From Gemmatimonadota bacterium (lineage in GTDB: Bacteria; Gemmatimonadota; Gemmatimonadetes; Gemmatimonadales; Gemmatimonadaceae): a DNA stretch of 64,000 bases. The notes beneath the pieces are model-generated. The model made no database searches. It had not been told where the DNA came from and worked only from the letters and a program-made list of their open reading frames with translations. The first letter of the stretch is position 1. The number at the start of each line of letters is the position of its first letter. Shown here one piece after another: positions 34,063 through 48,420 of the stretch. The stretch spans positions 1 to 64,000 of the forward strand of contig JAZJZK010000004.1 of the NCBI GenBank assembly GCA_040389905.1. Reading direction: 5' to 3'. Made by a program: the position numbers and the translations under genes.

Positions 34063-35190
34063 CTAGGTGGTACCGCCCTCAAGTGAGGAAACCCCGTTCG
34101 CCGTCGAGCGGACCCATTGGGTGCCCGCTCCGATGTAGCCTTTTGCGCGAAGCGGCCGCTGCGGTTCGTAGACAACCTTGATATGGTGAAGCGAGAGAAA
34201 GATCGTACTGAGCGAGCGCCGATTGAGGACCGCCGATGCCCGAAGCAGTGCGTCCGGCCAGACATCTCGGTGGTTCACCTCGTCCATCCACCCGTTGAAC
34301 GCGGCGAGCGCCCTGCGCTTTTCAGGAAGGCACAGACCGTCGCGTTCGAGCTCGGCAAGCCAGACCGGCCAGCGCGGCTCCCGGAAATACGGTGTGGAGA
34401 ACATCCCTTCGATCCCGATTCGGACAGCGACCTCCTCGCCGACATCGAGGTCGAGAAGGAGGACGTCCGGAAGCTGAAAATGACGCTGGATAACCGCCCC
34501 CACCGCCGCAAGCGAACCGCGCCAGCCGATCCGCGCGAGATACGGGACGATGTCCTCCGCCTTGATGTAGCTCACGACCAACCGCAATGCCGATGATGGC
34601 CGCTGCAGCATGGCGCCGACGTGCGTCACACTGGTTCCCGGAGGCTGTTCTGCGACGCACTTCTCGATCGTCGCGCGAGCCCGCGGTGACAAGCGCGCGC
34701 CGAGCAGAACGGGAAGCGCATCCTCAGTCAGCCATGGTCCGAAGGAACTCCCGCCGTCGATTCCCTCTGTCGGCCCAATGAAGACATTGGGTTCCGTTGG
34801 CAACTCCGAATCGGACCCATCATCCACGTCGAACTCCAGCCACATATTGCTCATGGTGCGCTCCAGGGCTGAGCCGGGCGACAACCAGCCGGCCGCGAGT
34901 GACTGGATACGTCCCCACGTCGAAGCTCCGCCGCCGGCTGGAGCGAAGGGATACGCCAGATTCTGTCCCGCGAGTGTTTCGCGCTCGCTCCCCTCCCCTC
35001 GAATCAGCACCAGCAAATCGGCGCGCGGCTCGGGCGAACCCAGCGGGCACTCGAAGCCGACTCGCGCGCTCAGCGTCCCAGGCATGTGGCGACAGATTCC
35101 CAATATCCTCGCCATGTTCTCGTGCGAGATGAGCGCTGGCTGAATTCGGCCCACCACCGGCCGAAGCATCTGATCGAGTGTCCAGCTCAC
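34063..35190 (-). CDS. uncharacterised RiPP-cluster protein; putative prenyltransferase (ABBA-like, inferred)
   Basis: GTG start overlaps the cyclase stop (GTGA); soluble ~375 aa with GFECPL, MWLEFD, IGIE, HHIKVVY...AKGY motifs; function inferred from context. Confidence 0.5.
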   Translation of the reverse strand: MSWTLDQMLRPVVGRIQPALISHENMARILGICRHMPGTLSARVGFECPLGSPEPRADLLVLIRGEGSERETLAGQNLAYPFAPAGGGASTWGRIQSLAAGWLSPGSALERTMSNMWLEFDVDDGSDSELPTEPNVFIGPTEGIDGGSSFGPWLTEDALPVLLGARLSPRARATIEKCVAEQPPGTSVTHVGAMLQRPSSALRLVVSYIKAEDIVPYLARIGWRGSLAAVGAVIQRHFQLPDVLLLDLDVGEEVAVRIGIEGMFSTPYFREPRWPVWLAELERDGLCLPEKRRALAAFNGWMDEVNHRDVWPDALLRASAVLNRRSLSTIFLSLHHIKVVYEPQRPLRAKGYIGAGTQWVRSTANGVSSLEGGTT

Positions 35191-36167
35191 GTCTGCATCG
35201 GTTCGGCAACGAAGCGACCGAGCACCGTCGCAATGGCCTGCGCGCAAACGACGGTGGTGAATACGCGAGCGCCGTAGAATTCAGGCAACATGTCGCGAAA
35301 AAAAGTCCCCGTCGCCCAGCCGCCGTCCGGCTGCTGCCGAGCGAGAAGCCAGTCAGCCGACTCCTCATCGCGCGGCCCTTCCGCGCCGGCGGAGAGCAGC
35401 GTCATGACCGCAAGCGCTGTTTCGAGATCACTTCCCCACCCGCCATCCGCATGTTGGGTGTGTCGCAGCCATGCGATAATCGGGTTCATTGTGCCTTCCA
35501 ACTCGGTGACTGCACCTCGCGCGAAGGCACGAGCGATCAGGTACGGCACCGCGAAGCGAGCAACGCCCCAACGATTGAGGATGTGGTAGGTCGAGCGTGT
35601 TGCAATGTGGTGAAAGAACGCGATCAACCGTGGATCAGGCCGCTTGAGGAGCCCCTGTAGCAGGAGCACGTTGGCATTGACCATGGAGTCCGGCAGTTCG
35701 AAGTCATGGGCGTTGATCTCCGGATCTCGCCACGTCTTGAATAACCCACATTCGGCGCGCAGGGGCTCGAGCGAGTCGAGCCACGCGTTGGCTTGCGTCG
35801 CAATCCTTTCGTCACCTGGATTCGCGACAAGACGCGCGGCGTAGGAGACGGACGTCGTATCGAGATCCGGGAGACGCTCTGGAAAGGCTGGTCCGAAAAA
35901 GCGCCACCATCCATCGGACTCCTGCGTTCGAGCGAGGTAGGCGTCGGCGCGTCGGAGCATCGGCGTCGCCGCGGGCGCCCGTGGTTCCATCGCCGCGAGT
36001 GCATCGGCAACGATCGCGTGAAGGTAGGGAGACTCGATGCGGCGCGCGCCAACCAGTCGCGGCGCGCTCGACACCTCGGTACGGAAGCCACCATCGGTCG
36101 ACTGCGCATTCGCGAGAAAGGACAACGCGCGATCCATTGCATCCGTCAGCTTCGAATGACTCGGCAA
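35187..36167 (-). CDS. class II terpene cyclase-like protein (prenyltransferase/squalene oxidase QW repeats)
   Basis: four QW-type repeats (LANAQSTDGGF, LARTQESDGWW, LRHTQHADGGWG, LLARQQPDGGW) and PDLDTT, resembling the DxDD(T) acid motif; AGGAG RBS before the TTG start. Confidence 0.75.
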   Translation of the reverse strand: MPSHSKLTDAMDRALSFLANAQSTDGGFRTEVSSAPRLVGARRIESPYLHAIVADALAAMEPRAPAATPMLRRADAYLARTQESDGWWRFFGPAFPERLPDLDTTSVSYAARLVANPGDERIATQANAWLDSLEPLRAECGLFKTWRDPEINAHDFELPDSMVNANVLLLQGLLKRPDPRLIAFFHHIATRSTYHILNRWGVARFAVPYLIARAFARGAVTELEGTMNPIIAWLRHTQHADGGWGSDLETALAVMTLLSAGAEGPRDEESADWLLARQQPDGGWATGTFFRDMLPEFYGARVFTTVVCAQAIATVLGRFVAEPMQT

Positions 36168-36293: not shown

Positions 36294-36614
36294 ATGGACG
36301 ACAAGGTACAATCGCGGAAAGATCTGGAAGCGAAACTCGTCGAGCTCGCACAAAAGGACGAGCAGTTCGCAGAAGCCCTTCGTCGCAATCCTCGCGCGGC
36401 GATCGAAAAGGAAATCGGCGCGCTACCCGAAGGCATGAACGTGAAGGTCATCGAAGAAGACGCAAACACCTTCTACCTGATCCTCCCACCGGCGGAGCAG
36501 ACCGGCGACTTCGCCCTCTCCGAGGAAGATCTCGCTTCGGTCGCGGGTGGATTGGGTGGACATACGGCAACGTGCTGTGGGTGCGTCGGCACGAACTGGC
36601 CGAAGTCAAAGTAA
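36294..36614 (+). CDS. NHLP-leader RiPP precursor A1 (core LGGHTATCCGCVGTNWPKSK)
   Basis: nitrile-hydratase-like leader (KDEQF...NPRAAIE...VIEE..NTFYLILP), LSEEDLASVAGG double-Gly site, GAGG RBS. Confidence 0.92.
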   Translation: MDDKVQSRKDLEAKLVELAQKDEQFAEALRRNPRAAIEKEIGALPEGMNVKVIEEDANTFYLILPPAEQTGDFALSEEDLASVAGGLGGHTATCCGCVGTNWPKSK

Positions 36615-36624
36615 CTGGCTCGCG

Positions 36625-36661
36625 CGAACGCTCCCCAAATCGGGGGCGCGCTCGTTTTTTT
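36625..36661 (+). terminator. terminator-like hairpin between the two precursors
   Basis: imperfect GC stem followed by TTTTTTT. Confidence 0.6.
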
Positions 36662-36714
36662 CTCGGCGTCGTATTCGCGCTCGCGCGCCGCCCCACACCT
36701 TCAGAGGCACAGTC

Positions 36715-37029
36715 ATGGACGAAAAAGTACAGTCGAGAAAGGATCTGGAAGCGAAACTCGTCGAGCTCGCACAGAAGGACGAGCAGTTCGCGGAAGCCCT
36801 TCGCCGCAATCCTCGCGCTGCGATCGAGAAGGAGATCGGCGCGCTACCCGAAGGCATGAACGTCAAGGTCATCGAGGAAGACGCCAACACCTTCTATCTC
36901 ATTCTTCCGCCCTCCGAGGAAACGGGCGACTTTGCGCTCTCAGAGGAAGATCTCGCCTCGGTCGCAGGTGGTGCACACACGGCAAGCTGCTGTGGCTGCA
37001 CCGGCACGAACTGGCCGCAGTCGAAGTAA
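36715..37029 (+). CDS. NHLP-leader RiPP precursor A2 (core AHTASCCGCTGTNWPQSK)
   Basis: leader identical to A1 at 83 of 86 residues, same GAGG.ACAGTCATG start context. Confidence 0.92.
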   Translation: MDEKVQSRKDLEAKLVELAQKDEQFAEALRRNPRAAIEKEIGALPEGMNVKVIEEDANTFYLILPPSEETGDFALSEEDLASVAGGAHTASCCGCTGTNWPQSK

Positions 37030-37050
37030 CCGACTCTCATGCCGATGGTG

Positions 37051-37089
37051 CGGGCGCGCTCCCACAGCGGGGGCGCGCCCGTTGCTTTT
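37051..37089 (+). terminator. rho-independent terminator after precursor A2
   Basis: CGGGCGCGCTCCC-loop-GGGGGCGCGCCCG followed by TTGCTTTT; lies between the convergent A2 and lanM genes. Confidence 0.7.
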
Positions 37090-37097
37090 CGCCGCCG

Positions 37098-40000
37098 TCA
37101 GCGACGCCACGCGAGGACGCATGGAAGGCGTCCCGGGAACGCCTGACGAAGCAGCGCGTAGCCAACGCCGGCACTGCCCTGAAAGAAACCGGGAAAGAGG
37201 GCTTCCCGCGGCAATCCTGGCAACAGCTCATAGCTGCCGGCGTCCGCCTTTTCGAGAACGCGACTTGTCAGCTCCCGAGCCTCCGCCGCGAGATCCGCGC
37301 GCCCGAGATCGACCGCTGCTTCGAGGAGAATGTCCGCCCTCCCCATGTTCCCGCAACACAGTTGGTCTACGCCTTCAAGTCCGTGGGCGCGCGTCGTGGA
37401 CAGTGCAATGTCCAAGTCTTCACGCACTGCTGCGGTGTCGAGCGCGTGGAGTCCCACAAGACGCCCGAGTGCGATGCCGGGAGCGCCATGACACCACGAC
37501 GTCCAGATCGAGGGACCTCCATCCGGCGCTGATTCGCCGAGTCGCGGCCAGTTGCCGTGGGCGGTCAGGAACAGCGTGCGCTCGTACGCTACGGCCTGCT
37601 CGGCTGCCGTGACCAGCGTCTCATCCGGCCCGAGGGCGTGCACTCGCAACAGCGCTGCGGCAATGCCAGCCGCCCCGTGTGAAAAGCCGGCGAACGGAAG
37701 GTCACGGATCGTATTCCACGCACGTAGTCCCTGCCCCGGAACGACGCTTTTCGCAACGAGGTGACGAGCACACAGCTGCGCGCGCGCGAGGGCGTTCACG
37801 TCCCCGGATGCCTCGTAGAGCGCAAGCAATCCGAGCGCCGCGCCCGCACTTCCGGCAATCACATCGAGCTGTGTGTCGGCCGCGACGATCGTCTCGTCAA
37901 TGAGCGTTGCCGCCGTACGTGCCGCGTTCAACAGCAATGGTTCACCCAGCCACTCGCCAACCAGGGTAAGAACGTAGATCGTGGAGCCAATGCCATCTGC
38001 TCCGCCAATCCCTACGGCTGAGCGAAGACGTTGGGGCTGGCGATGCAACTCCTCACGAAGCGGTTGAAGTGCCTCCAATGCCCACGTTCGCCATTCCTCC
38101 GACGCCGTGATGCGCCACAACGCCGCGAAGAAGAGTCCCACACCGGCACATCCGCTGTAGAGACCGTAACCCAGCGGATGCATTTCGTAACGCCCTGCCT
38201 GCGGGAAAAACTGCACGGCGATCCACGATGCGCCGCCGTGCGGTGCACGCACGGCGTTGTTGACCAGCTCGCGAGCGATGGCAACCGCGCGAGCCACGAG
38301 CATCTCCGGCTCGAGCGTTCCAGAGGGTCGTGCTGCAACGGCGGGCGAAGCGACGGTATCACTCGGGCGCGGCTCCCGCGCCACGCGAAGGTGCAGTGTC
38401 GCACGAATGAACGAGACTTGGCGCTCGCAGTCCTCGAGGCTCAGCGCCGCGATTCTCGCCCGTGCGCGCGCTGCAGGTGAGACCCCGAAGCAGTCTGGCA
38501 CTTCCCCATGTTCGCCCAGCGGAAGCGACCTGGAACCAGCATTCGCGACGAAGAGCGGAATATCCGCGCGCTCGAGTGCCTCGGCCTCGGCTTTCCGCAC
38601 GGGCCAGAAAGCGTGCAGTGACGGATTCTCAACGAGGATTCTGCTCGGCGCATCGATCGCCGTGGATCGATCGACACCATCGCGAAGCAACGTCCGATTG
38701 TAGGATGCGTTCAGGTTGAGGAAGTACTCGCGCGTCGCCCGGAACAGGAAACGCACCCGCTCACTCTCGAGCCCTTCCAATGGGCCACCGCGATCGAGAA
38801 GCGCGTCGCGATTACGCAGCAACAATTGGTAAAGCCCGCGGAAACCTTTGACGAGAGAGTCGGCATAGTCCACCGGTGACAACGCGCGGTCGTCCAGGAT
38901 GACAACGTTTTGCTGCGGCTGTGCATCCACGTGTTCACGGACGAGACGCATGTCGTCGGTGTTTGGATGTTGCCACGTGGCCATCCGATCGAGCGTCTTC
39001 TGATCGCCGCCACCCCCGAGGGCGCTGATGTCTTGACTGCTTCCATCTGGTCCGAATACCCAGCGCGGGAGCAGGCCGACTGACAGCACCGTGTCTGCGA
39101 GCATTCGGTCGGCGACGACGAATGCCGTGGGCTCCTGCTCAGCCCCACCATTGAGCGGACGCTCTTCGTGCGAGACCAGCATCTCGAGGTCAATGAGCAT
39201 CGGTTGCTCGCCGCTCGCCACGAGGTTCTGGTCGTGGAGGTCCGTTGTGCCAAGCGCATGCATGAGCGCGAGGATCATTCCGGCGCGCTCATAGTATCGT
39301 TCCGCCTCGGCGACGTCAGCACAGGCGCGCTGTTCGGCGAACTCCACCCAGCCGTGGGTTGGCCTGGCGAGAACCTTGAGTGGCCGAAGCGGCGGCGACG
39401 CACCGCGATCATTGGCCCACTGCAGCAACCGGAACCAGCGGGACTCCAACGCCAAATCGCGCGGTTTGTAAACGACACGCAACCCAGAAGCAAATGTCAC
39501 AATTGCCACAGTACGCCCGCCGCTGTGCGCATCGGAAAGTCCAGCGTTCGCCGACACGACGCCGCCAATGTCCACCCCGTCGGCGAAGAGCGCTTGAATA
39601 TCGTTCTTATCTGCAACGAGCCGATCGATTGTCTCCTGTGTCACGTCAATCCACTGATCAGTCACCGTGGCGGTGAGGCGCGCGGCAACGGGAAAGCGTC
39701 TGAAGAATTCGGTCAGCCCTCCGGTGCGCATCCGCTCCAACCAACGCCTGTAGAGGTGCTGCGGCGGGGTGCGCTTCCCCGCGAGTCCGCGCTCGAGGGG
39801 TGATTGCTGCGCCGCGCGAAATGCGAAGAACTCCTGGACGAGCGCGTTGGCGCAGATGCTCGAGATCGAGCGTAGCAGGTCCTGCTCGAAGGCGGCGAGC
39901 GCGACGTCCGACATGGTGCTCGCCCTGGTGCGTGCTGCGAGGCGAGTCCGTGCGAAACGCACGAACGGGAGAAGCGCCTCCTCCATCGGGACCGGGCGCA

Positions 40001-40331
40001 GCGGATCCATACTGCGGTCCGTTTCTACCCATGACTCGTCGGATAGCACGGCAGCGAGTGTCGCGGTCCACGCGGGGAGCGGCGTGTCCGCTGGAAGACG
40101 CACCTTGCCGAAGAGTCGGCGCGCGTCGGCGGGTGTCAAACCATCCATCGCCAGACGGCGCTCGAACAGGGCTTGGTCTCCACCGGCAACGAAGCGACGC
40201 CACCGTTCGAATCGCGAGTCGACGTCGGCCGCACGCGCTGGCTCGTCTTCGAGAATGGTGCCAACGGCGAGCCGCTCCGTGAGAGAAGTAGCGCGCGCGA
40301 CTATCTCCCTCAGCTCCGCATCGGACAACAT
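37098..40331 (-). CDS. lanM: class II lanthipeptide synthetase
   Basis: 1077 aa; dehydratase motifs VVYKPR, TDLHDQN, IDLE, FRAT.EY; LanC-like cyclase motifs FSHGAAG, WCHGAPG, LCCGNMG. Confidence 0.93.
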   Translation of the reverse strand: MLSDAELREIVARATSLTERLAVGTILEDEPARAADVDSRFERWRRFVAGGDQALFERRLAMDGLTPADARRLFGKVRLPADTPLPAWTATLAAVLSDESWVETDRSMDPLRPVPMEEALLPFVRFARTRLAARTRASTMSDVALAAFEQDLLRSISSICANALVQEFFAFRAAQQSPLERGLAGKRTPPQHLYRRWLERMRTGGLTEFFRRFPVAARLTATVTDQWIDVTQETIDRLVADKNDIQALFADGVDIGGVVSANAGLSDAHSGGRTVAIVTFASGLRVVYKPRDLALESRWFRLLQWANDRGASPPLRPLKVLARPTHGWVEFAEQRACADVAEAERYYERAGMILALMHALGTTDLHDQNLVASGEQPMLIDLEMLVSHEERPLNGGAEQEPTAFVVADRMLADTVLSVGLLPRWVFGPDGSSQDISALGGGGDQKTLDRMATWQHPNTDDMRLVREHVDAQPQQNVVILDDRALSPVDYADSLVKGFRGLYQLLLRNRDALLDRGGPLEGLESERVRFLFRATREYFLNLNASYNRTLLRDGVDRSTAIDAPSRILVENPSLHAFWPVRKAEAEALERADIPLFVANAGSRSLPLGEHGEVPDCFGVSPAARARARIAALSLEDCERQVSFIRATLHLRVAREPRPSDTVASPAVAARPSGTLEPEMLVARAVAIARELVNNAVRAPHGGASWIAVQFFPQAGRYEMHPLGYGLYSGCAGVGLFFAALWRITASEEWRTWALEALQPLREELHRQPQRLRSAVGIGGADGIGSTIYVLTLVGEWLGEPLLLNAARTAATLIDETIVAADTQLDVIAGSAGAALGLLALYEASGDVNALARAQLCARHLVAKSVVPGQGLRAWNTIRDLPFAGFSHGAAGIAAALLRVHALGPDETLVTAAEQAVAYERTLFLTAHGNWPRLGESAPDGGPSIWTSWCHGAPGIALGRLVGLHALDTAAVREDLDIALSTTRAHGLEGVDQLCCGNMGRADILLEAAVDLGRADLAAEARELTSRVLEKADAGSYELLPGLPREALFPGFFQGSAGVGYALLRQAFPGRLPCVLAWRR

Positions 40332-40340
40332 CGCGTGGTC

Positions 40341-41816
40341 CTAGGGATTCGTGTAAGCGCGGACCGACTGGCCCGTGTCTGCTCGATAGCGCACCACGGC
40401 ATTCACGAGGTCGAACCACGCGCGCGCCTCCTCGAACTCTGCCTGTGACTCTTGCTCCTCGTACTGAAGAAGGCGGAAGATATCCGAAAGTCCCAGAGCG
40501 AGTCGCTCGCGCTCCCCCTCATACTGCTCCCGCGCGAGCCGCATTGCCTCGGTACTGCGGGTCAACCGCTGGCGTCCAATCGTGATGCCGCGATACGCGG
40601 ACCGAACTTCCACGCGGGTGGCATTCTCTGCCTGCAGGAGCGCCAACGAAGCGCCTTTCGCAATGGCATCCGCGCGCTCGGCTTCTGCCTTGGCCGCATG
40701 GTTCCCGATTGGGTACGTGACGAGAAGTCCCGCGCGCCAGTCGGTCAACCGTGCCTCATTCGCATCACGCGCCGAGAATCCGGCGGCGTCTCTCGTGAAC
40801 GCGAGCGTGGAAAACCCTGCGGCCAGCCCAACGGACGGCCGAAGGTTGTCGCGTGCGAGGTCCAGCAACACGCGGCTTTGATCCAACTCGCTTCGCGCCA
40901 CGGCGATATCCGGCCGCTCGGTCAGCGCGGCGCTCACCGTCGTACCAAGTGGAGGCAATTCGGGAATGACGACTGCCGTATCGACCGCGAGCAGAAACTC
41001 GTCGTCCTTGAGCAATTCTGCGGGCGCGTTCTCTCCATACACCGCAAAGACCAGCGCATCCTGTGCATCATGCCGTGCCTGCATGAGCCTCAACAGCGCC
41101 GCCTGGCGAGAGGTAACGCCAAGTCGAGCGGTCGTGAGGTCGATCTCCGTGATCCGGCCGATGCGACGCAGTTCGAGGTTCGCCACGAGCAGATCCTCAG
41201 CCCGTTTGAGCGAGCGTTCTTCTACGGCCTGCGCCCGTTCCTGCTCGACGAGTAGGTAATACGCCGCTTCGATACGCGCTACCGTCTCGTTCTGGATTTG
41301 CGCCAGGCGGGCGCGCGCGGCATCGACGCCGAATTCCGCGGCGCGCGTCGGAGCCGTGGTCGCTCGGCTGCGGAATCCGCGCAGCAGCGGCTGCACCACG
41401 CTGGCCGAGAAAGTGTTCTGGGCGAGCGGTTCTCCGGGGAGCGCAGACTGGAAGCCCGTGCCGACCTGATAGGTAGTGCCGGTGCGCAACGCACCCTGCA
41501 CCGCTCCCGTGTAAAGCCGACTCGCCAACTCGGAGCTTTGGCCGGCCAGCACGCGTCCATTGGAGGTGTAGGTCGGTCCAATCTGAATGGCCGGATCGAA
41601 CGCCGATTGCGCGGCAAGGACGGCACTCGATGACGCACGCGCGCTGACGCCCGCCTGACGAACATCGAGGTTTCGCTGCAGCGCGATGCGCACCATGTCT
41701 GCGAGACGAATGCGGAGCGTGTCGTCGTGCACCGATTCGTCATGCGCCGGTTGAGCCATCGCGCGACTGGCCAGGAGCGACGCGAGAAGAATCGCGGCAG
41801 CGTGTCGTCGCGTCAT
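40341..41816 (-). CDS. TolC family outer membrane efflux protein
   Basis: signal peptide, ALQRN.D, AFDP, QPLLRG, RPD, two helical efflux repeats. Confidence 0.88.
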   Translation of the reverse strand: MTRRHAAAILLASLLASRAMAQPAHDESVHDDTLRIRLADMVRIALQRNLDVRQAGVSARASSSAVLAAQSAFDPAIQIGPTYTSNGRVLAGQSSELASRLYTGAVQGALRTGTTYQVGTGFQSALPGEPLAQNTFSASVVQPLLRGFRSRATTAPTRAAEFGVDAARARLAQIQNETVARIEAAYYLLVEQERAQAVEERSLKRAEDLLVANLELRRIGRITEIDLTTARLGVTSRQAALLRLMQARHDAQDALVFAVYGENAPAELLKDDEFLLAVDTAVVIPELPPLGTTVSAALTERPDIAVARSELDQSRVLLDLARDNLRPSVGLAAGFSTLAFTRDAAGFSARDANEARLTDWRAGLLVTYPIGNHAAKAEAERADAIAKGASLALLQAENATRVEVRSAYRGITIGRQRLTRSTEAMRLAREQYEGERERLALGLSDIFRLLQYEEQESQAEFEEARAWFDLVNAVVRYRADTGQSVRAYTNP

Positions 41817-44722
41817 GTGGTCTGCCGAGCCGCCAGCTTGGCGAACAGACCATCGCGCGCCACGAGGTCTTCGTAACGACCCTCCTCCACAATGCGGCCT
41901 TCGTGCATGCTGAAGATGCGATCGGCGTTCCTGATGGTGGAGAGACGATGCGCGATCACCACGCGAGTCGCCTGAAGCCGCTCGAGACTCTTGCTCACGG
42001 TTTCCTGCGTCCGGTTGTCGAGGGCACTTGTTGCTTCGTCGAAGAAGATGATACGCGGCTTCTTCACGAGGGCTCGCGCGATCAGCAGCCGCTGACGCTG
42101 GCCACCCGACAACGCCGTCGCGCCCTCACTGAGCACCGTATGCATTCCCATTGGCATGAGCCGAATGTCATTCGCAAGTCCCGCCATCTCCGCCGCCTCC
42201 CACACGTCGTCCAGACTCAGCGGAGCCGCGCCCGCGATGTTGGTGAAGATGTCACCGGCGAGGATGCGACTCTGCTGTAACACAACGGCACATTGGCTGC
42301 GGACCGCTGAGACGTCCACGGAGGAAAGGTCCTGCCCGTCAAAGATGACGGCTCCACGCTCGGGACGTTCGAAGCCTAGGAGGAGCCGCAGGATGGTGGA
42401 CTTCCCTGCCCCTGATGCGCCAACGAATGCCACGAATTCGCCTGGCCGTATCTGGAATGAGACGTCCGAGAGGATGGGCGGCCCGTCGGCGAGATAGCGG
42501 AACGTGACGTGTGATACCTCGATCCGTCCGGTCAAGAGGCCCGGGTCGGGCTTGAGCTCGTCCACCTCGGGCGGCGTGACCAGGATCGGCCGTGCGCGCT
42601 CCAACATCGGAATGATGTTCAGCAGACTGACGGCTGTGGTACTCATCTGCGTGCCAGCGGTCAGGAACGCACCGAACGCCGCATAGAACGCCATGAAGTC
42701 TCCGGTCGAAAGCGTCTGGCCGGCCCCGGCGTCCGAGCCGGAGATGAACACGAGAAAGAGGACGATCGCCGCGACCGTCGGAAGCGTTTCGTTGAACACG
42801 GTGACGGCCGCCTGACTGAGCCCCATGCGGTAGGACACCGCCTTCTGGTCGCGGAAGATGGCGCCCCACACGGCAAAGGCACGACGCTCAGCGGCCGCGA
42901 CGCGAAGCTTCGCGATGCCGCCGAGGATCTGGAAAAGCAGCGCGCCCACTCGTCCCTGTATTTCCTGCCGTTGTCGCTCGAGCCGGAGGGTGTGCACACC
43001 TAACGCGCCAGTGACGAGGACAGAGACGACGAACACGCCAAGTGCGACGAGCGCCAACTTGCCGCTGTACTTGATCATCAGAAACAGGTTTGCCACTACG
43101 AGCATGCCGCCGAGCAACGCAGTGATGGCGGCGCCGCTGAGGAGTTCTCGCACGCCGTTGATGGCCCCCGCACGAAGCGACAGATCGCCGACGCTGAAGC
43201 GCCGGAAGAATGGGACCGGAAGCGCGAACAACCGATCCACGAGTGCGGCTTGGAGCGTCGCGTTGGAACGTCCTTCGAAGCGCACGAGCGCCATCGCGCG
43301 CGCGAGATCCACCAGGCCGCCGCCAATCGCCATACCAGCCAGTGCGCCAAACAACGCGAGCGCATTGCTGATCTGCGCACTCGGAATGACGGCGTCGAAA
43401 ATCTTCTGCGTGGAGATCGGAAGCGCGAGACTCAGGAGGCTCGATGCCACCGCAAACAGCAGAACGCGTCGAAGATCGATCCATGCCTCGATGCCCGCCA
43501 CGCGGGCAAGCACTTTGAGATCGATCGGTCCACTCGGCGCGGGGCGGTAGAACATGTATCCCACCGCCTCGAGCGTGCCGGCCACTTCCTTCGTCACGAT
43601 TTCACTCGTTCCGGTGGCTGGGTCGCGGAGCGTGTAGATCCCTTCGACCGAGGAGAGCAGCGCGACGGGAGCATTCCCTTCCGAACGGTAAGCGAGGAGG
43701 GGCCCGCAATCCGTGCTCCACCACTCGCCGCGCAGGACCACCCGCCGATGGCGGACGCGCGAAGCCCGACAGATCGCGCCGAGGCGGTCGCGCCAACGTC
43801 CGCTCTCCTCCCAGCTTGGCGGCGCCCGGAAAACGATGCGTGCGGAATCACCAACAAGCCGACACGCCGCGAGCAGCGGATCCGACGTTTCGAGCAACGG
43901 TGGAGCAGCGCCGCGGGAGGTGCCGAGGACACTCGCGAGGCCAGTCATGCTCAGCGCCTCGAGTTCTCGCTCCTGATCCGCCTTCCGTCGCAGCCGCTCG
44001 CGATCGGCCTGCATCGCGCTCGCGGTACCTTTCGCCGCCCAGGAGAGAAACGCGCCGCGGACGATCTTCAGCGCCGGCCGCACATTGCCGTGTGCCAAGG
44101 CGTTTTCGGTGCTCACCGCGGTGAGCGTGGCCTTGGCAGACGTGACGGAGTACCACATGCCGCGCGCCAACGGCAGCGCGGCGCTAGCCTCCAGAGGCAC
44201 ATCATTGGCGAAGGCAAGCTCGCCGTCGCTGGCAGAAATCCAGCACACTGCGCGCGGCGCTCCAACCGACGCAGCGCGTTGGAGGCTGAGCGGTTCCGCG
44301 TCGAGTTCGATATCCACCACTGGTCCGTGCGACGTGGCCGCCATCGCGCGGGCGAACGTTTCAGCGACTCGCTCGGCAAGCGGTGCCGACCAGCCGCTGT
44401 GATCGTCGAGCGCCGATTCCGGAACCGCACGGATCCGAGCCGCGCCGGCCGCAACAGCGATCAGCGTCGCGGTGCCGTCTGTGGTGCCTCCGCCGAGGAC
44501 CACCTCGTTCGCCCAGAGCGTCGTGAGAAAGTGGAGCGGCCCGAATTCGCCGTCCGGCCTCTTTTCCGCGAAAAAGATGTCGACTTCACCCTTGAGCACG
44601 ACCCAGAGTGTGTCCGGATCATCGAGTGGGAGTGGCGTGTTCCCGGGTAGCGTGCGCACTGCCCCCGGCAATGCCGCGTCGCTCAGTTGCGGCTGGATGA
44701 GGTCTGACCTCGCTTGGCGCAC
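41813..44722 (-). CDS. NHLP bacteriocin export ABC transporter permease/ATPase (no peptidase domain)
   Basis: N-terminal cNMP-binding-like segment, TM domain, GASGAGKS, LSGGQRQR, FDEATSALD; GTG start chosen at 44722. Confidence 0.88.
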   Translation of the reverse strand: MRQARSDLIQPQLSDAALPGAVRTLPGNTPLPLDDPDTLWVVLKGEVDIFFAEKRPDGEFGPLHFLTTLWANEVVLGGGTTDGTATLIAVAAGAARIRAVPESALDDHSGWSAPLAERVAETFARAMAATSHGPVVDIELDAEPLSLQRAASVGAPRAVCWISASDGELAFANDVPLEASAALPLARGMWYSVTSAKATLTAVSTENALAHGNVRPALKIVRGAFLSWAAKGTASAMQADRERLRRKADQERELEALSMTGLASVLGTSRGAAPPLLETSDPLLAACRLVGDSARIVFRAPPSWEESGRWRDRLGAICRASRVRHRRVVLRGEWWSTDCGPLLAYRSEGNAPVALLSSVEGIYTLRDPATGTSEIVTKEVAGTLEAVGYMFYRPAPSGPIDLKVLARVAGIEAWIDLRRVLLFAVASSLLSLALPISTQKIFDAVIPSAQISNALALFGALAGMAIGGGLVDLARAMALVRFEGRSNATLQAALVDRLFALPVPFFRRFSVGDLSLRAGAINGVRELLSGAAITALLGGMLVVANLFLMIKYSGKLALVALGVFVVSVLVTGALGVHTLRLERQRQEIQGRVGALLFQILGGIAKLRVAAAERRAFAVWGAIFRDQKAVSYRMGLSQAAVTVFNETLPTVAAIVLFLVFISGSDAGAGQTLSTGDFMAFYAAFGAFLTAGTQMSTTAVSLLNIIPMLERARPILVTPPEVDELKPDPGLLTGRIEVSHVTFRYLADGPPILSDVSFQIRPGEFVAFVGASGAGKSTILRLLLGFERPERGAVIFDGQDLSSVDVSAVRSQCAVVLQQSRILAGDIFTNIAGAAPLSLDDVWEAAEMAGLANDIRLMPMGMHTVLSEGATALSGGQRQRLLIARALVKKPRIIFFDEATSALDNRTQETVSKSLERLQATRVVIAHRLSTIRNADRIFSMHEGRIVEEGRYEDLVARDGLFAKLAARQTT

Positions 44723-44723
44723 G

Positions 44724-46922
44724 CTAGCTCTCCCGGGCGAGCGTGGCATACAGGCCGTCCGGATCACGCATCAGCGTGTCGTGCGTGCCTCGCTGTACCA
44801 CAGCACCTTCCTTGAGCACAACGATTTCGTCGGCATCGCGGATCGTCGACAGCCGGTGCGCGATGATGACGCATGTGCAGCCGCGCCGACGCAAGCTCCT
44901 GTCGATTTTGTGCTCGGTGACCGAGTCGAGCGCGCTCGTGGCTTCGTCCAGCACCAGCAGCCGAGGAGAAAGCACCAACGCGCGTGCAATTTCCAGCCGT
45001 TGCCGCTGGCCGCCGCTGAAGTTGGCTCCGGCTTCCTCGACCTGGCTCTCGTACGCGCCCGGCCGAGACATGATGTCGTCGTGAATCGACGCATCGCGGC
45101 AGGCCTGCATGAGCACCGCCTCGGGAACCGTCGAGTCCCAGAGGGTCAGGTTCTCGCGGATGGTCCCGGCAAACAGCGAAATCTCCTGGTCCACCAGCGC
45201 GACAGAATTCGCGAGCACGCGTCGCGGCCACGCCGTACGCGCCTTGCCGTCGAACAGCACGTCCCCTTCCCACGGGTCGTAGAGACCCGTAGCCAGTCGT
45301 GCCACTGTGCTCTTTCCGCAGCCCGACGGGCCAACGAGCGCAACACGACGCCCCGACCGCATGCGTAAATCAAAGTTCTTGAGCAGCGGCGCCGCCTGCC
45401 TCGAATAACCGAAGGTGACACTGCGGAGCTCGAATGCCCCTTCGAGCCGGTCTTCCGCGCCTTCCTGATCCTCTGCCGCGGTGAGCCCAATCCGGCTGTC
45501 CGCCGGGTATTCCAACACGTCCTGCACTCGTTCCATGTTGCCGTGCATTTCCTGGACGGAGCTCGCGAGCTGCACGAACGACGCGACGGGTTGAAGGAAG
45601 CTGGCCATCAAGCTCTGAAACGCGACGAGCATTCCAATGGTGAGATCACCCTCGATGACGCGATACGCGCCGAACGTGAGGACGATCGCATTGGTCATGG
45701 TGATCGTGAACGCCGGCACCACGAGGAAGGATTGCGTGACACGCGCCAACGACTGTTGCGCCATGAGATACTTCGCCTGATAGCCGGCCCATCGCGCGAA
45801 CACGTCACTTTCCGAAGCGCCGGCCTTGAGCGTCTCGATCGCGCTGAGTCCTGCCATCAGTGTTCCCGTGGACTTTCCTGCCTCCTGCAGCACGCGGCGA
45901 TTGCCGTCGACTCTGCGCCGGTTGACGACGACCGTCGATCCCGCCAGCACGGCGACCGCCAGCACGCCGAACAGGGTGAGCAGCGGATCGTACGCCAACA
46001 TCAAGGCGGCGTAAAACACGACGAGCAGGGCGTCGATCGCCGTCGAGGCCAGCTTGCGCGACACGAATTCCGAGATGGTGTCGTTGATCGCCACACGCGA
46101 GCTGATCTCGCCGCTGTAGCGTTGCGCATAGAACTCGACAGGAAGCCGGAGCAGATGCGAGAGGAAGCGACTCGAGGAGCTGATGGAAAGCTTCGTATCG
46201 AGCCGCAACAGGTAGTAGTGTTGCAGCCACCCGAGGGCCGCGCGCACGACGGCGGTCAGCCCCATGCCCAGCAGCAGCGGACGGAGCCAGTCGCGCAGGT
46301 TATGCACGAGCACCTGATCGACGAACACCTGCGTGAATGCAGGAAGCGCGAGTCCCGGTACGACCAGCGCGAGGCCGGCAAGCAGCGCAAACGTCAGGGC
46401 ATTCTCGGAACCGCGGACACGCTCGCGCAGGAGCGCGACGAGATTTGGCGGCGCGCCACCCGGCGTGAATTCGGATGTGCGCGCGAACTCGAGGACGACT
46501 CCAGTGAAGCCCTGATCGAACTCGTCCTTCGTGATGCTATAGGGGCCCTGCGCCGGGTCGTTGAGGTAGTAGCGATCGTCGAGGACGCCCTCGAGGACGA
46601 GAAAGTGATTGAAGTTCCAGAAGACGATGGCTGGAAATACGGTGCGGCCCATGTCCTTCAGCTCGCGCCGGAACCCCTTCGCCTCCAGTCCGTAACTTCG
46701 TGCAGCTCGCAAAAGAACCGCGGCGTTCGAGCCGTCGCGCGAAACACCGCAGGCAATGCGCAACTCCTCGAGTGGCACGCGACGTCCGTGAAACGCGAGC
46801 ACCATTGCGAGTGAGGCTGCACCGCACTCGACCGCCTCCATTTGGAGGATGGTCGGCGTTCTGACACGCGTACCTTCTGGGCGGCGGGGGAAAAACGCCC
46901 GCAGCCGCTGCAGCCTAGACAC
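44724..46922 (-). CDS. NHLP bacteriocin export ABC transporter with C39 peptidase domain (LanT-type)
   Basis: QMEAVECGAASL (catalytic Cys), WNFNHF (His), NDPA; GPSGCGKS, FSGGQRQR. Confidence 0.92.
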   Translation of the reverse strand: MSRLQRLRAFFPRRPEGTRVRTPTILQMEAVECGAASLAMVLAFHGRRVPLEELRIACGVSRDGSNAAVLLRAARSYGLEAKGFRRELKDMGRTVFPAIVFWNFNHFLVLEGVLDDRYYLNDPAQGPYSITKDEFDQGFTGVVLEFARTSEFTPGGAPPNLVALLRERVRGSENALTFALLAGLALVVPGLALPAFTQVFVDQVLVHNLRDWLRPLLLGMGLTAVVRAALGWLQHYYLLRLDTKLSISSSSRFLSHLLRLPVEFYAQRYSGEISSRVAINDTISEFVSRKLASTAIDALLVVFYAALMLAYDPLLTLFGVLAVAVLAGSTVVVNRRRVDGNRRVLQEAGKSTGTLMAGLSAIETLKAGASESDVFARWAGYQAKYLMAQQSLARVTQSFLVVPAFTITMTNAIVLTFGAYRVIEGDLTIGMLVAFQSLMASFLQPVASFVQLASSVQEMHGNMERVQDVLEYPADSRIGLTAAEDQEGAEDRLEGAFELRSVTFGYSRQAAPLLKNFDLRMRSGRRVALVGPSGCGKSTVARLATGLYDPWEGDVLFDGKARTAWPRRVLANSVALVDQEISLFAGTIRENLTLWDSTVPEAVLMQACRDASIHDDIMSRPGAYESQVEEAGANFSGGQRQRLEIARALVLSPRLLVLDEATSALDSVTEHKIDRSLRRRGCTCVIIAHRLSTIRDADEIVVLKEGAVVQRGTHDTLMRDPDGLYATLARES

Positions 46923-48171
46923 CAAGCCACCTGCGCAGCGCTGGGATGACCAGCGCAATCGGCGCTCGGCGTTGAATCACGATCTTTCCGTCCAGAAGCG
47001 TTCCACTGCCGAAGGTCATCGGTGGTCCGTCGCCGGTCGTCCACGCGAACCCACTTGGCGTCGCTGGATTTCGGTCTACCGTCACGTCCACGAGGTATGC
47101 GCCGCCGCGCGACGTGAACTGGTTGACCAACACGTCATTCTTCAGGTAGCGATGAAGCGCCGTGCCGCTGATCGGTGCCAACGAGACGGAATGGACGGTT
47201 CCCAGGAAGTAACCGCTTTCCTCTGGCTTGACGCCGCCAGGAACCATTTCGACGCGCATCCCCGGACGTATCCGCTTCCCTTCCAGCGGAATAAAGAGCG
47301 AGACCTGAATGGGTACCGTCGACGACTCCAGCGTGACGATCGGTGTGTGGCTGGAAATTGCCTGACCGGCATCGACGAGTTGCTCCACCACGACGCCGTC
47401 GTAGGCGCTGGTTACGTTGGCCGCCGCCGCGAACTGTTCCTTCTGCGCCGCCAACCGGTGCTCCGCCTCCCAGATCTGCTGGTCGAGCGTGAAGACCGTT
47501 TGACTGCTCTGGCTCGTCAGTTGAGAGACTCTGGCGGCGAGTTCCTGCTTCCGCGCCAACGCCCCCATGAGTTGTTGCTCGGATTCACCGCGCTGTGCGA
47601 TGGTGCCCTGCGCCGCATCGGGCGTCAACAGTCCGCGCTTGAGCGCTTGTGCCTCCAGCGCGATCCGATCATCCAGGTACTTCACCCGGTCGCGAGCGGC
47701 GACGATTGTCGCGTCCGCCTGCTTTTGCTGCTGGTCGATCGACGCGAGCTCGAGGCGCTTGCTGGACTGGACGAAGGGCACCGTCGCGGCGCGGTTTCGG
47801 CGCAGCTGTTCGAGGGTGACCTCTGTCTGCGCCACGGCGGTTTGCAACTCGGGCTGTGCGAGGATCGCGACCACCTCCCCTTTGTGCACTGGCGTGCCGG
47901 GCCGCGCGACCATCTGTTCGATCTGCCCGGCGCCATTGGATTGGACCCGGAACAATCCGCCTTCACGAATCATCAGGCCGGATCCGGCGATGGCCTCGGG
48001 GATTCGCCCGAACACTCCCCAACTCAGGGCCCCAACGACCACAGCACCAAGCGCTGCCAGTGCCATCCAGCCCTTGAGGGTAGTGACCTCCATGAGCGTG
48101 TCCAACCGCTCCGGGCTGGACAGTCGCTCGAGCGCCACAGCGCGAAAGAGGCGGCGCGGGTTGCCAGCCAT
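46915..48171 (-). CDS. NHLP bacteriocin system secretion protein (HlyD family)
   Basis: FRAVALERLSSPERLD N-terminus, one TM, coiled coil, beta-barrel C-terminus. Confidence 0.9.
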   Translation of the reverse strand: MAGNPRRLFRAVALERLSSPERLDTLMEVTTLKGWMALAALGAVVVGALSWGVFGRIPEAIAGSGLMIREGGLFRVQSNGAGQIEQMVARPGTPVHKGEVVAILAQPELQTAVAQTEVTLEQLRRNRAATVPFVQSSKRLELASIDQQQKQADATIVAARDRVKYLDDRIALEAQALKRGLLTPDAAQGTIAQRGESEQQLMGALARKQELAARVSQLTSQSSQTVFTLDQQIWEAEHRLAAQKEQFAAAANVTSAYDGVVVEQLVDAGQAISSHTPIVTLESSTVPIQVSLFIPLEGKRIRPGMRVEMVPGGVKPEESGYFLGTVHSVSLAPISGTALHRYLKNDVLVNQFTSRGGAYLVDVTVDRNPATPSGFAWTTGDGPPMTFGSGTLLDGKIVIQRRAPIALVIPALRRWLGV

Positions 48172-48273
48172 GATGGAGGTTTCCGGGCTCCGCAGGCGAG
48201 GCCTCGGAGCGTGCTAGAGACGAATGCTGTCGTTGGGAGAGATGGAAACCGACGACGTCGTGCGGATAGGAAA

Positions 48274-48347
48274 TACCCTCGGGCGGACTCGAACCGCCGG
48301 CCAACGGTTTAGGAAACCGCTGCTCTATCCACCTGAGCTACGAGGGC
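48274..48347 (-). tRNA. tRNA-Arg(CCT), CCA not encoded
   Basis: GCCCTCG acceptor stem, TAGCTCAGGTGGATAGAGC D-arm, GCGGT-TTCCTAA-ACCGT anticodon arm, GGTTCGAGTCC T-arm. Confidence 0.95.
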
Positions 48348-48420
48348 AACGACTTCCCTCAAACTAGCAAGAGCGTTCGCCGCGCGGAACACTCGTTTGT
48401 GATGCGAGAACCTCGAGTCA

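Follow-up and report, generated by a model that had tools for sequence, protein, structure and literature searches.

What is encoded by a reading frame that begins on the stop codon of a terpene cyclase gene, within a cluster for a ribosomal peptide, and what would its product do to that peptide? The locus lies in a stretch of 64,000 nucleotides from a Gemmatimonadota bacterium (contig JAZJZK010000004.1, positions 1–64,000), which is called the window below. The original prediction took the product to be a candidate new RiPP prenyltransferase (PT), translationally coupled to the cyclase.

The gene and its cluster

The open reading frame (ORF) of about 375 amino acids is real: it comprises 375 codons plus a stop on the minus strand, a strand that had not been named before, and runs from a GTG at 35190 to a TAG at 34063, the plus frame of the same segment being riddled with stops. 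The GTG overlaps the end of the upstream cyclase gene as had been described, sharing the tetranucleotide GTGA with its TGA (a 4-nt overlap). The two genes are separate ORFs in different frames and are also two separate proteins in the protein database. An alternative TTG start at 35247 would give a protein of 394 amino acids, and the database record, with 368 amino acids, fits an ATG at 35169; because homology starts at residue 3, the GTG (or the upstream TTG) is preferred over this ATG. No Shine–Dalgarno sequence was found before the GTG, and the TTG of the upstream cyclase gene is preceded by AGGAG. We infer that translation of the PT is coupled to that of the cyclase, which the missing Shine–Dalgarno sequence would fit.

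The surrounding genes form a compact cluster with two NHLP precursors, a LanM, and an exporter (Table 1). The precursors are 93% identical and occupy the strand opposite to all of the enzymes (36294–37082, +), having arisen by a recent tandem duplication. Both predicted cores contain three Cys, several Ser/Thr, a His, and a single Trp near the end. A GAGG site lies upstream of each precursor and a GC-rich hairpin past each stop; the terminator-like hairpins after the precursors were not in excess over shuffled sequences (2 vs. 3.2), and a sigma-70 promoter was not detected. Across the genome (84.6% complete), the two precursors were the only NHLP genes found, the PT was found in a single copy, and two polyprenyl synthases were located on other contigs. 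The cluster is island-like in that it adjoins a tRNA-Arg(CCT) gene about 100 nt upstream, its genes have a GC3 (0.68–0.79) slightly under that of the flanking genes (0.75–0.84), and the PT was absent from both of the sampled genomes of the same genus. No attachment repeat was detected: at the far border of the cluster, the search for a duplicated tRNA 3' end turned up just a 10-mer from the tRNA interior, judged to be a chance match.

Table 1. Genes in and beside the cluster, with their positions in the window and the evidence for each assignment
Feature	Coordinates	Strand	Evidence
PT, predicted ABBA (PT-barrel)	34063..35190	-	Fold model, structural matches, 32% identical to the PT part of a PT–MstE-like fusion
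Class II terpene cyclase-like protein; single domain, alpha6/alpha6, D101-L-D103-T	35187..36167	-	Pfam SQHop_cyclase_C 3e-13; profile vs. AsDMS E 7e-20
NHLP precursor 1; predicted 20-aa core after Gly-Gly, 3 Cys, Thr/Ser, one Trp near the C-terminus	36294..36614	+	TIGR03793 71.3 bits, cut-off 50.9
NHLP precursor 2; predicted 18-aa core, 3 Cys, one Trp	36715..37029	+	TIGR03793 71.7 bits
LanM, class II lanthipeptide synthetase	37098..40331	-	TIGR03897 819.5 bits, cut-off 304
TolC-like outer-membrane efflux protein	40341..41816	-	Pfam OEP 1.4e-35
NHLP export ABC transporter permease/ATPase	41813..44767	-	TIGR03797 875 bits, cut-off 709
NHLP export ABC transporter with peptidase domain (likely leader removal)	44724..46958	-	TIGR03796 1044 bits, cut-off 853
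NHLP secretion adaptor (HlyD)	46915..48171	-	TIGR03794 283.7 bits, cut-off 156
tRNA-Arg(CCT)	48273..48348	-	

Predicted fold and relatives of the probable prenyltransferase

In terms of sequence, the seven short motifs with charged or aromatic residues that had been read as hydrophobic strands were all present, at residues 44, 116, 135, 244, 257, 335, and 349, and each falls on a predicted beta-strand. The protein also has no transmembrane helix, as had been proposed, its highest 19-residue Kyte–Doolittle mean being 1.07. Every one of the 32 sequences in an alignment, which are 22–37% identical to the query, has the same ten residues (E47, E119, D121, F137, R197, R203, H336, K338, K350, and Y352), and the motifs are thus not due to chance. 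No Pfam or NCBIfam family matched any of these 32 members at E 0.01, the profiles of the cyanobactin F-family and of DMATS/NphB in these libraries included, which means that standard annotation misses the family. Sequence searches of the PDB with two profiles (A1 and A3) likewise gave no matches besides one chance match at E = 2.

The structure predicted with AlphaFold2 from an alignment of 13 sequences (pLDDT 88.6, pTM 0.90) is a PT-barrel with ten main strands arranged in helix–strand–strand–helix repeats. When the model was compared with 48,161 chains using VIA, ranks 1–19 were all ABBA PTs, with Z 10.6–16.7 and about 255–303 residues aligned, and the next chain scored 6.3. The best match was CymD (Z 16.7, rmsd 4.1, 299 residues aligned), and other scores were 16.6 for MpnD, 13.9 for the NphB type, 12.5 for PatF, and 11.7 for PagF. 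With Foldseek, aromatic PTs accounted for 38 of 38 among the matches listed (best E 6e-5; TM by query 0.35–0.52), and the identity to any solved PT was only 6–16%. In the Atlas, the cyanobactin F-family and the DMATS/NphB families came up only as leads under its 0.9 bar, and the PT matched, at TM 0.83, a 686-aa cluster in which 22% of the members have a squalene-cyclase domain. The resemblance to ABBA enzymes, for which the fold had been set as a refuting test, is therefore upheld by the predicted structure and by its VIA neighbors. In the model, R197, R203, H336, K338, K350, and Y352 are located within barrel strands or at strand ends, and these six invariant Arg, His, Lys, and Tyr residues would bind the diphosphate.

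A protein search with the PT returned 13 matches, i.e., the protein itself and 12 others at 26–37% identity, and a genome scan identified 19 PT relatives among 30 pattern matches. An NHLP precursor, a LanM, or an NHLP exporter was found at 17 of these 19 loci and a kinase–LanC synthetase at one more; the remaining locus, on a contig of 8.7 kb, contained no lanthipeptide or NHLP gene. All 13 homologue loci with a parsed core had a core with Trp. Counted by core, 24 of the 26 parsed cores contained Trp, against 6.7 expected at a Trp frequency of 1.3%, a baseline that is assumed and not drawn from matched cores, with related genomes that are not independent. Within the phylum, the PT occurred in 20 of 301 genomes and an NHLP gene above the cut-off in 22 of 301; the two were shared by 18 genomes, many of them kin. 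Thus, an above-cut-off NHLP gene was present in 18 of the 20 genomes with the PT and in 4 of the 281 without it. The PT was also found in 22 of 401 cyanobacterial genomes. This RiPP context and the Trp bias of the homologous cores support the reading as a RiPP PT, and together with the predicted fold they make it very probable that the gene encodes a RiPP prenyltransferase of the ABBA fold.

In a quick version of the family tree with 81 rows, three short rows being dropped and four duplicates omitted (L040, L054, L018, and L080), the PT of the window fell in an open group of 39 rows with a support of 90, together with the MstE-fused PT and the PTs of srp-like clusters; no sister is claimed, and the PT of the window sits on a long branch (1.38). 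Some PT homologues (L091, L092, L096, L076, and L082) were located beside parsed cores without Trp (LCCCG, LSCCA, and Tyr-containing cores), and these may use another acceptor or be leftovers. At eight of the 19 loci (L001 3389–5215, L004, L008, L009, L010, L011, L012, and L019), an ORF of approximately 580–620 amino acids was encoded next to or near the PT. None of the six such ORFs scanned had a Pfam match, and they may represent an unrecognised RiPP tailoring enzyme.

The neighboring cyclase and the order of the steps

The cyclase consists of 326 amino acids in a single domain, with no HAD phosphatase domain. Its profile matched the drimenol synthase AsDMS over the length of the cyclase domain (E 7e-20), followed by AstC (1e-11) and MstE (3e-4); the total score with squalene-hopene cyclase was higher (1.5e-23), but it was made up of six short repeats. 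With phmmer, the match to MstE had an E-value of 0.08. The best match to the MstE-like fusion P0017 (see below) covered 28 residues (E 4e-5). For the predicted structure (pLDDT 85.0), the top ten VIA rows were class II cyclases, with AsDMS (9mhs) the best (Z 31.8, rmsd 2.4, 292 residues aligned) and MstE at Z 27.7. In Foldseek, a monodomain myxobacterial cyclase (8pak) tied with AsDMS on the E-value, and the TM-score was higher for AsDMS. On the profiles and the model, the cyclase is thus closest to the AsDMS/AstC beta-domain lineage, not to MstE.

The active-site residues give a divided picture. D101-L-D103-T aligns with D321-L-D323-T of AsDMS, such that D103 corresponds to the general acid D323, and D101, D103, and N166 (AsDMS D321, D323, and N378) were kept in all 18 aligned cyclase sequences. 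For the diphosphate-binding and active-site residues given for AsDMS in PMC12232559, the profile alignment puts F156 and L158 at R368 and R370, a retained Arg (R199) at R415, and G201 at Y417; furthermore, R291 lies near the R503 loop, the mapping of which is uncertain. The three closest relatives (41–43% identity) have F/L at R368/R370, G/A at Y417, and Leu at R415. This partial loss of the arginine site favors a substrate without a diphosphate, although, with R199 matching R415 and R291 close to the R503 loop, the cyclase may yet bind a diphosphate. The original prediction assumed that a class II cyclase must work on a prenylated substrate. This does not strictly hold, given that free FPP is cyclised by both AsDMS and AstC, the solved enzymes closest to the cyclase, neither of which uses a gamma domain (PMC12232559 and PMC13244436, in excerpt), and the order of the steps is consequently something that we infer.

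We favor, with slightly better than even confidence, a route in which LanM would first dehydrate Ser/Thr and close the thioether rings. The PT would then bind the NHLP leader, ionise a prenyl diphosphate via R197, R203, H336, K338, K350, and Y352 with E47, E119, and D121, and alkylate an indole carbon of the single Trp in both of the precursors targeted by LanM; because a ring cascade follows, the donor would probably be C15 or C20. Subsequently, Asp103 of the cyclase would protonate the terminal alkene, and the chain would be closed into rings before export, with the peptidase-ABC, HlyD, and TolC proteins taking off the leader and exporting the product. The replacement of R368 and R370 by F156 and L158, with F/L also in the three closest relatives, supports prenylation before cyclisation. 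Against the full route stands Gly201 at AsDMS Y417, whose AstC counterpart is a Tyr that helps to activate the acid (PMC13244436).

The pairing of a PT with a cyclase is found in several forms. A cyanobacterial fusion protein (P0017) has a PT domain that is 32% identical to the PT of the window over 364 columns (E 3e-44) and a C-terminal domain that matches MstE (E 1e-115); its gene (L061) is flanked by a LanM and by an NHLP precursor whose core contains Trp, a layout like that given for NctPC in PMC13290415. Across such fusions (P0006, P0008, L056, L057, L063 = P0016, P0011, and L061 = P0017), PT domains are joined to a 2OG-Fe(II) oxygenase, a SAM methyltransferase, or an MstE-like cyclase. 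The N-terminal extension of P0011 looks like a cyclase fragment by eye and had no Pfam match. With alignment A1, a search confined to proteins of 1090–3110 amino acids gave no fused forms of greater length; the fusion P0017 came from the cyanobacterial genomes. At another cyanobacterial locus (L067 395–1477, minus strand), the gene after that of the PT homologue encodes an MstE-like cyclase on its own (E 1e-79), and split pairs of the PT and MstE type therefore exist too.

Full-length cyclases of the AsDMS lineage were found at only two of the 19 PT loci (L013 and L015), with weak matches at two more, and thus the PT family does not need a cyclase. Such a cyclase occurred in 14 of the 301 genomes of the phylum, and 13 of these 14, the genome of the window included, have the PT. 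In the other 12 genomes, the PT is 3.3–10.1 kb from the cyclase; their clusters are srp-like and form a single lineage, spread over two families. Among 29 metagenome cyclase loci, a PT was present at 10, all of which belong to the 15 whose cyclase is fused to an NHLP-like domain, and at none of the 14 with an unfused cyclase within the stretch covered, many of these contigs being short.

These counts bear on a reading in which the PT, like MppC, attaches nothing more than a linear prenyl group, and the cyclase is inactive or acts on another substrate. We regard this as unlikely. The many PT loci without a cyclase and the unfused cyclase relatives that often have no PT nearby would suit it, as would the Gly at the Y417 position and the preference of MppC for GPP (PMC12715784, in part). 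However, that Gly is not a sign of recent decay, since Gly or Ala is common to the three closest relatives, and a cyclase with its D101, D103, and N166 counterparts kept throughout the 18 sequences, encoded by a gene that overlaps the PT gene by 4 nt, is at odds with an idle or unrelated enzyme. Furthermore, a PT and a cyclase co-occur in unrelated settings, namely at L013 and L015, in srp-like clusters, and in the fusion P0017.

The main rival reverses the order: the cyclase would make a drimenyl- or copalyl-type diphosphate from free FPP or GGPP, and the PT would transfer the pre-cyclised terpene to Trp. We consider this rather improbable. The replaced R368 and R370 argue against a cyclase that handles a diphosphate, and although R199 stands at the R415 position, the three closest relatives have Leu there. 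The primary diphosphate left after cyclisation is non-allylic, which would make it a poor donor in the dissociative mechanism of ABBA enzymes. The precedents NctPC and ChrPC prenylate first (PMC13290415). What keeps this order in view is that the AsDMS beta domain ranks first for the cyclase in both structural and full-length profile comparisons, that AsDMS and AstC act on free FPP with no gamma domain, and that the cyclase gene comes first and encodes no HAD phosphatase to break down the diphosphate.

It is quite improbable that, instead of Trp, the PT modifies a His, Ser, Thr, or Cys of the core or a small molecule. Both cores of the window do contain His, some homologues stand beside Trp-free cores, and among the solved structures nearest in fold are enzymes that act on free Trp, cyclic dipeptides, or His; nevertheless, the prevalence of Trp in the homologous cores and the tight link of the PT to NHLP genes point to a Trp in a peptide, and MppC refuses free Trp (PMC12715784, in part). 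Finally, a PT-barrel that transfers nothing and partners the cyclase as a leader-binding protein or scaffold is very improbable, for although a shared fold is no proof of function and the PT has a long branch, its reading frame is intact and all ten invariant charged or aromatic residues are kept.

The srp-like clusters (L085 6233–7534, L086 14786–16087, L042–L053, L134–L147, and L150) have short CCC cores (e.g., LCCCW), a YcaO, and sometimes a Trp halogenase, together with a cyclase homologue bearing an N-terminal domain like an NHLP leader and, in most cases, a PT homologue within about 10 kb. This fused domain may serve to bring the cyclase to enzymes that bind the leader. The accessible srp literature mentions only the YcaO and the brominase; the peptides of srp-like clusters may be prenylated as well, and if the pairing is read correctly, those of the brominase clusters would also carry a terpene.

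Comparison with known systems

Prenylated and terpene-cyclised RiPPs have been described only recently, and few of their enzymes have been characterized. In NctPC, an ABBA PT is fused to an MstE-like cyclase, and the protein geranylgeranylates Trp and cyclises the chain (Hubrich et al. 2024, Chem, as reviewed in PMC13290415); the same source states that prenylation precedes cyclisation in NctPC and ChrPC and that the PT of NctPC has low similarity to cyanobactin PTs. MppC is a stand-alone, leader-dependent ABBA lanthipeptide PT that prefers the macrocycle and geranylates Trp at C5, with GPP as the preferred donor and free Trp not accepted (PMC12715784, in excerpt). In the mpp cluster, a distinct gene, mppD, carries a terpene synthase annotation (PMC11791876, in excerpt). 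A search for mppC and mppD in the Org Lett supplement gave no match, and no passage on prenylation was found in the ACS Chem Biol 2025 paper or in two Nat Commun papers. Within our literature search, no RiPP PT paired with a cyclase of the drimenol-synthase type was found; such clusters may be listed in Hubrich 2024 (paper and supplement), in the supplement on MppC, or in the first srp paper, all of which lie outside that search.

We tentatively raise the possibility of a third way to cyclic terpenes on ribosomal peptides, in which an ABBA PT and a stand-alone cyclase of the drimenol-synthase lineage would yield a lanthipeptide with drimane- or labdane-like rings on Trp. In the boldest form of this proposal, the cyclase would make the cyclic diphosphate first, and the barrel would transfer the pre-cyclised terpene to the peptide. 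If, on the other hand, the cyclase acts on the peptide-bound chain, a domain of the drimenol-synthase type would have been repurposed for peptides and would offer a modular tool for lipidation and cyclisation. The cluster is compact and complete, with two precursors, a LanM, the PT, the cyclase, and an exporter, and is thus directly testable in E. coli.

Among the characterized enzymes, in so far as the published descriptions available cover them, NctPC shares with the window an ABBA PT, a class II cyclase of one domain, and Trp as the acceptor, which is predicted here. It differs in being one fused chain, whereas the window has two genes with the cyclase first, and in its MstE-like cyclase, whereas that of the window is of the AsDMS lineage. 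With MppC, the PT of the window shares a stand-alone soluble ABBA form, a LanM, and a long-leader precursor with Trp; in contrast, the leader is of the NHLP type in the window and Nif11-like in mpp, and MppC adds C10 to the indole C5. That the PT works like NctP and MppC is well supported. It is probably a member of the NctP/MppC family, with the sequence of P0017 as the proxy for that of NctPC. The bacterial and fungal DMATS-type indole PTs (CymD, MpnD, FgaPT2, PriB, and IptA) are the best structural matches (Z 14.9–16.7), but their identity is 7–16%, none of the 32 members of the PT family has a Pfam match, and their substrates are small molecules. The cyanobactin F-family has the ABBA barrel and acts on ribosomal peptides, but its Z scores are lower (PatF 12.5, PagF 11.7), its members are shorter and leader-independent (PMC12715784, in excerpt), and the cluster of the window is of the LanM/NHLP type. 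The cyclase resembles AsDMS and AstC in its single beta-domain fold, its DxDT motif, and the conserved positions F271, F308, and N378, and differs from them in having no HAD phosphatase domain, in the replacement of R368, R370, and Y417, and in its location in a RiPP cluster. The original prediction of a new kind of RiPP PT does not hold in this respect, since ABBA PTs for lanthipeptides and proteusins have been published (MppC and NctPC). The enzyme type and the general chemistry are thus already in the literature, and what sets the window apart from these systems is the split partner, a separate cyclase of the drimenol-synthase lineage.
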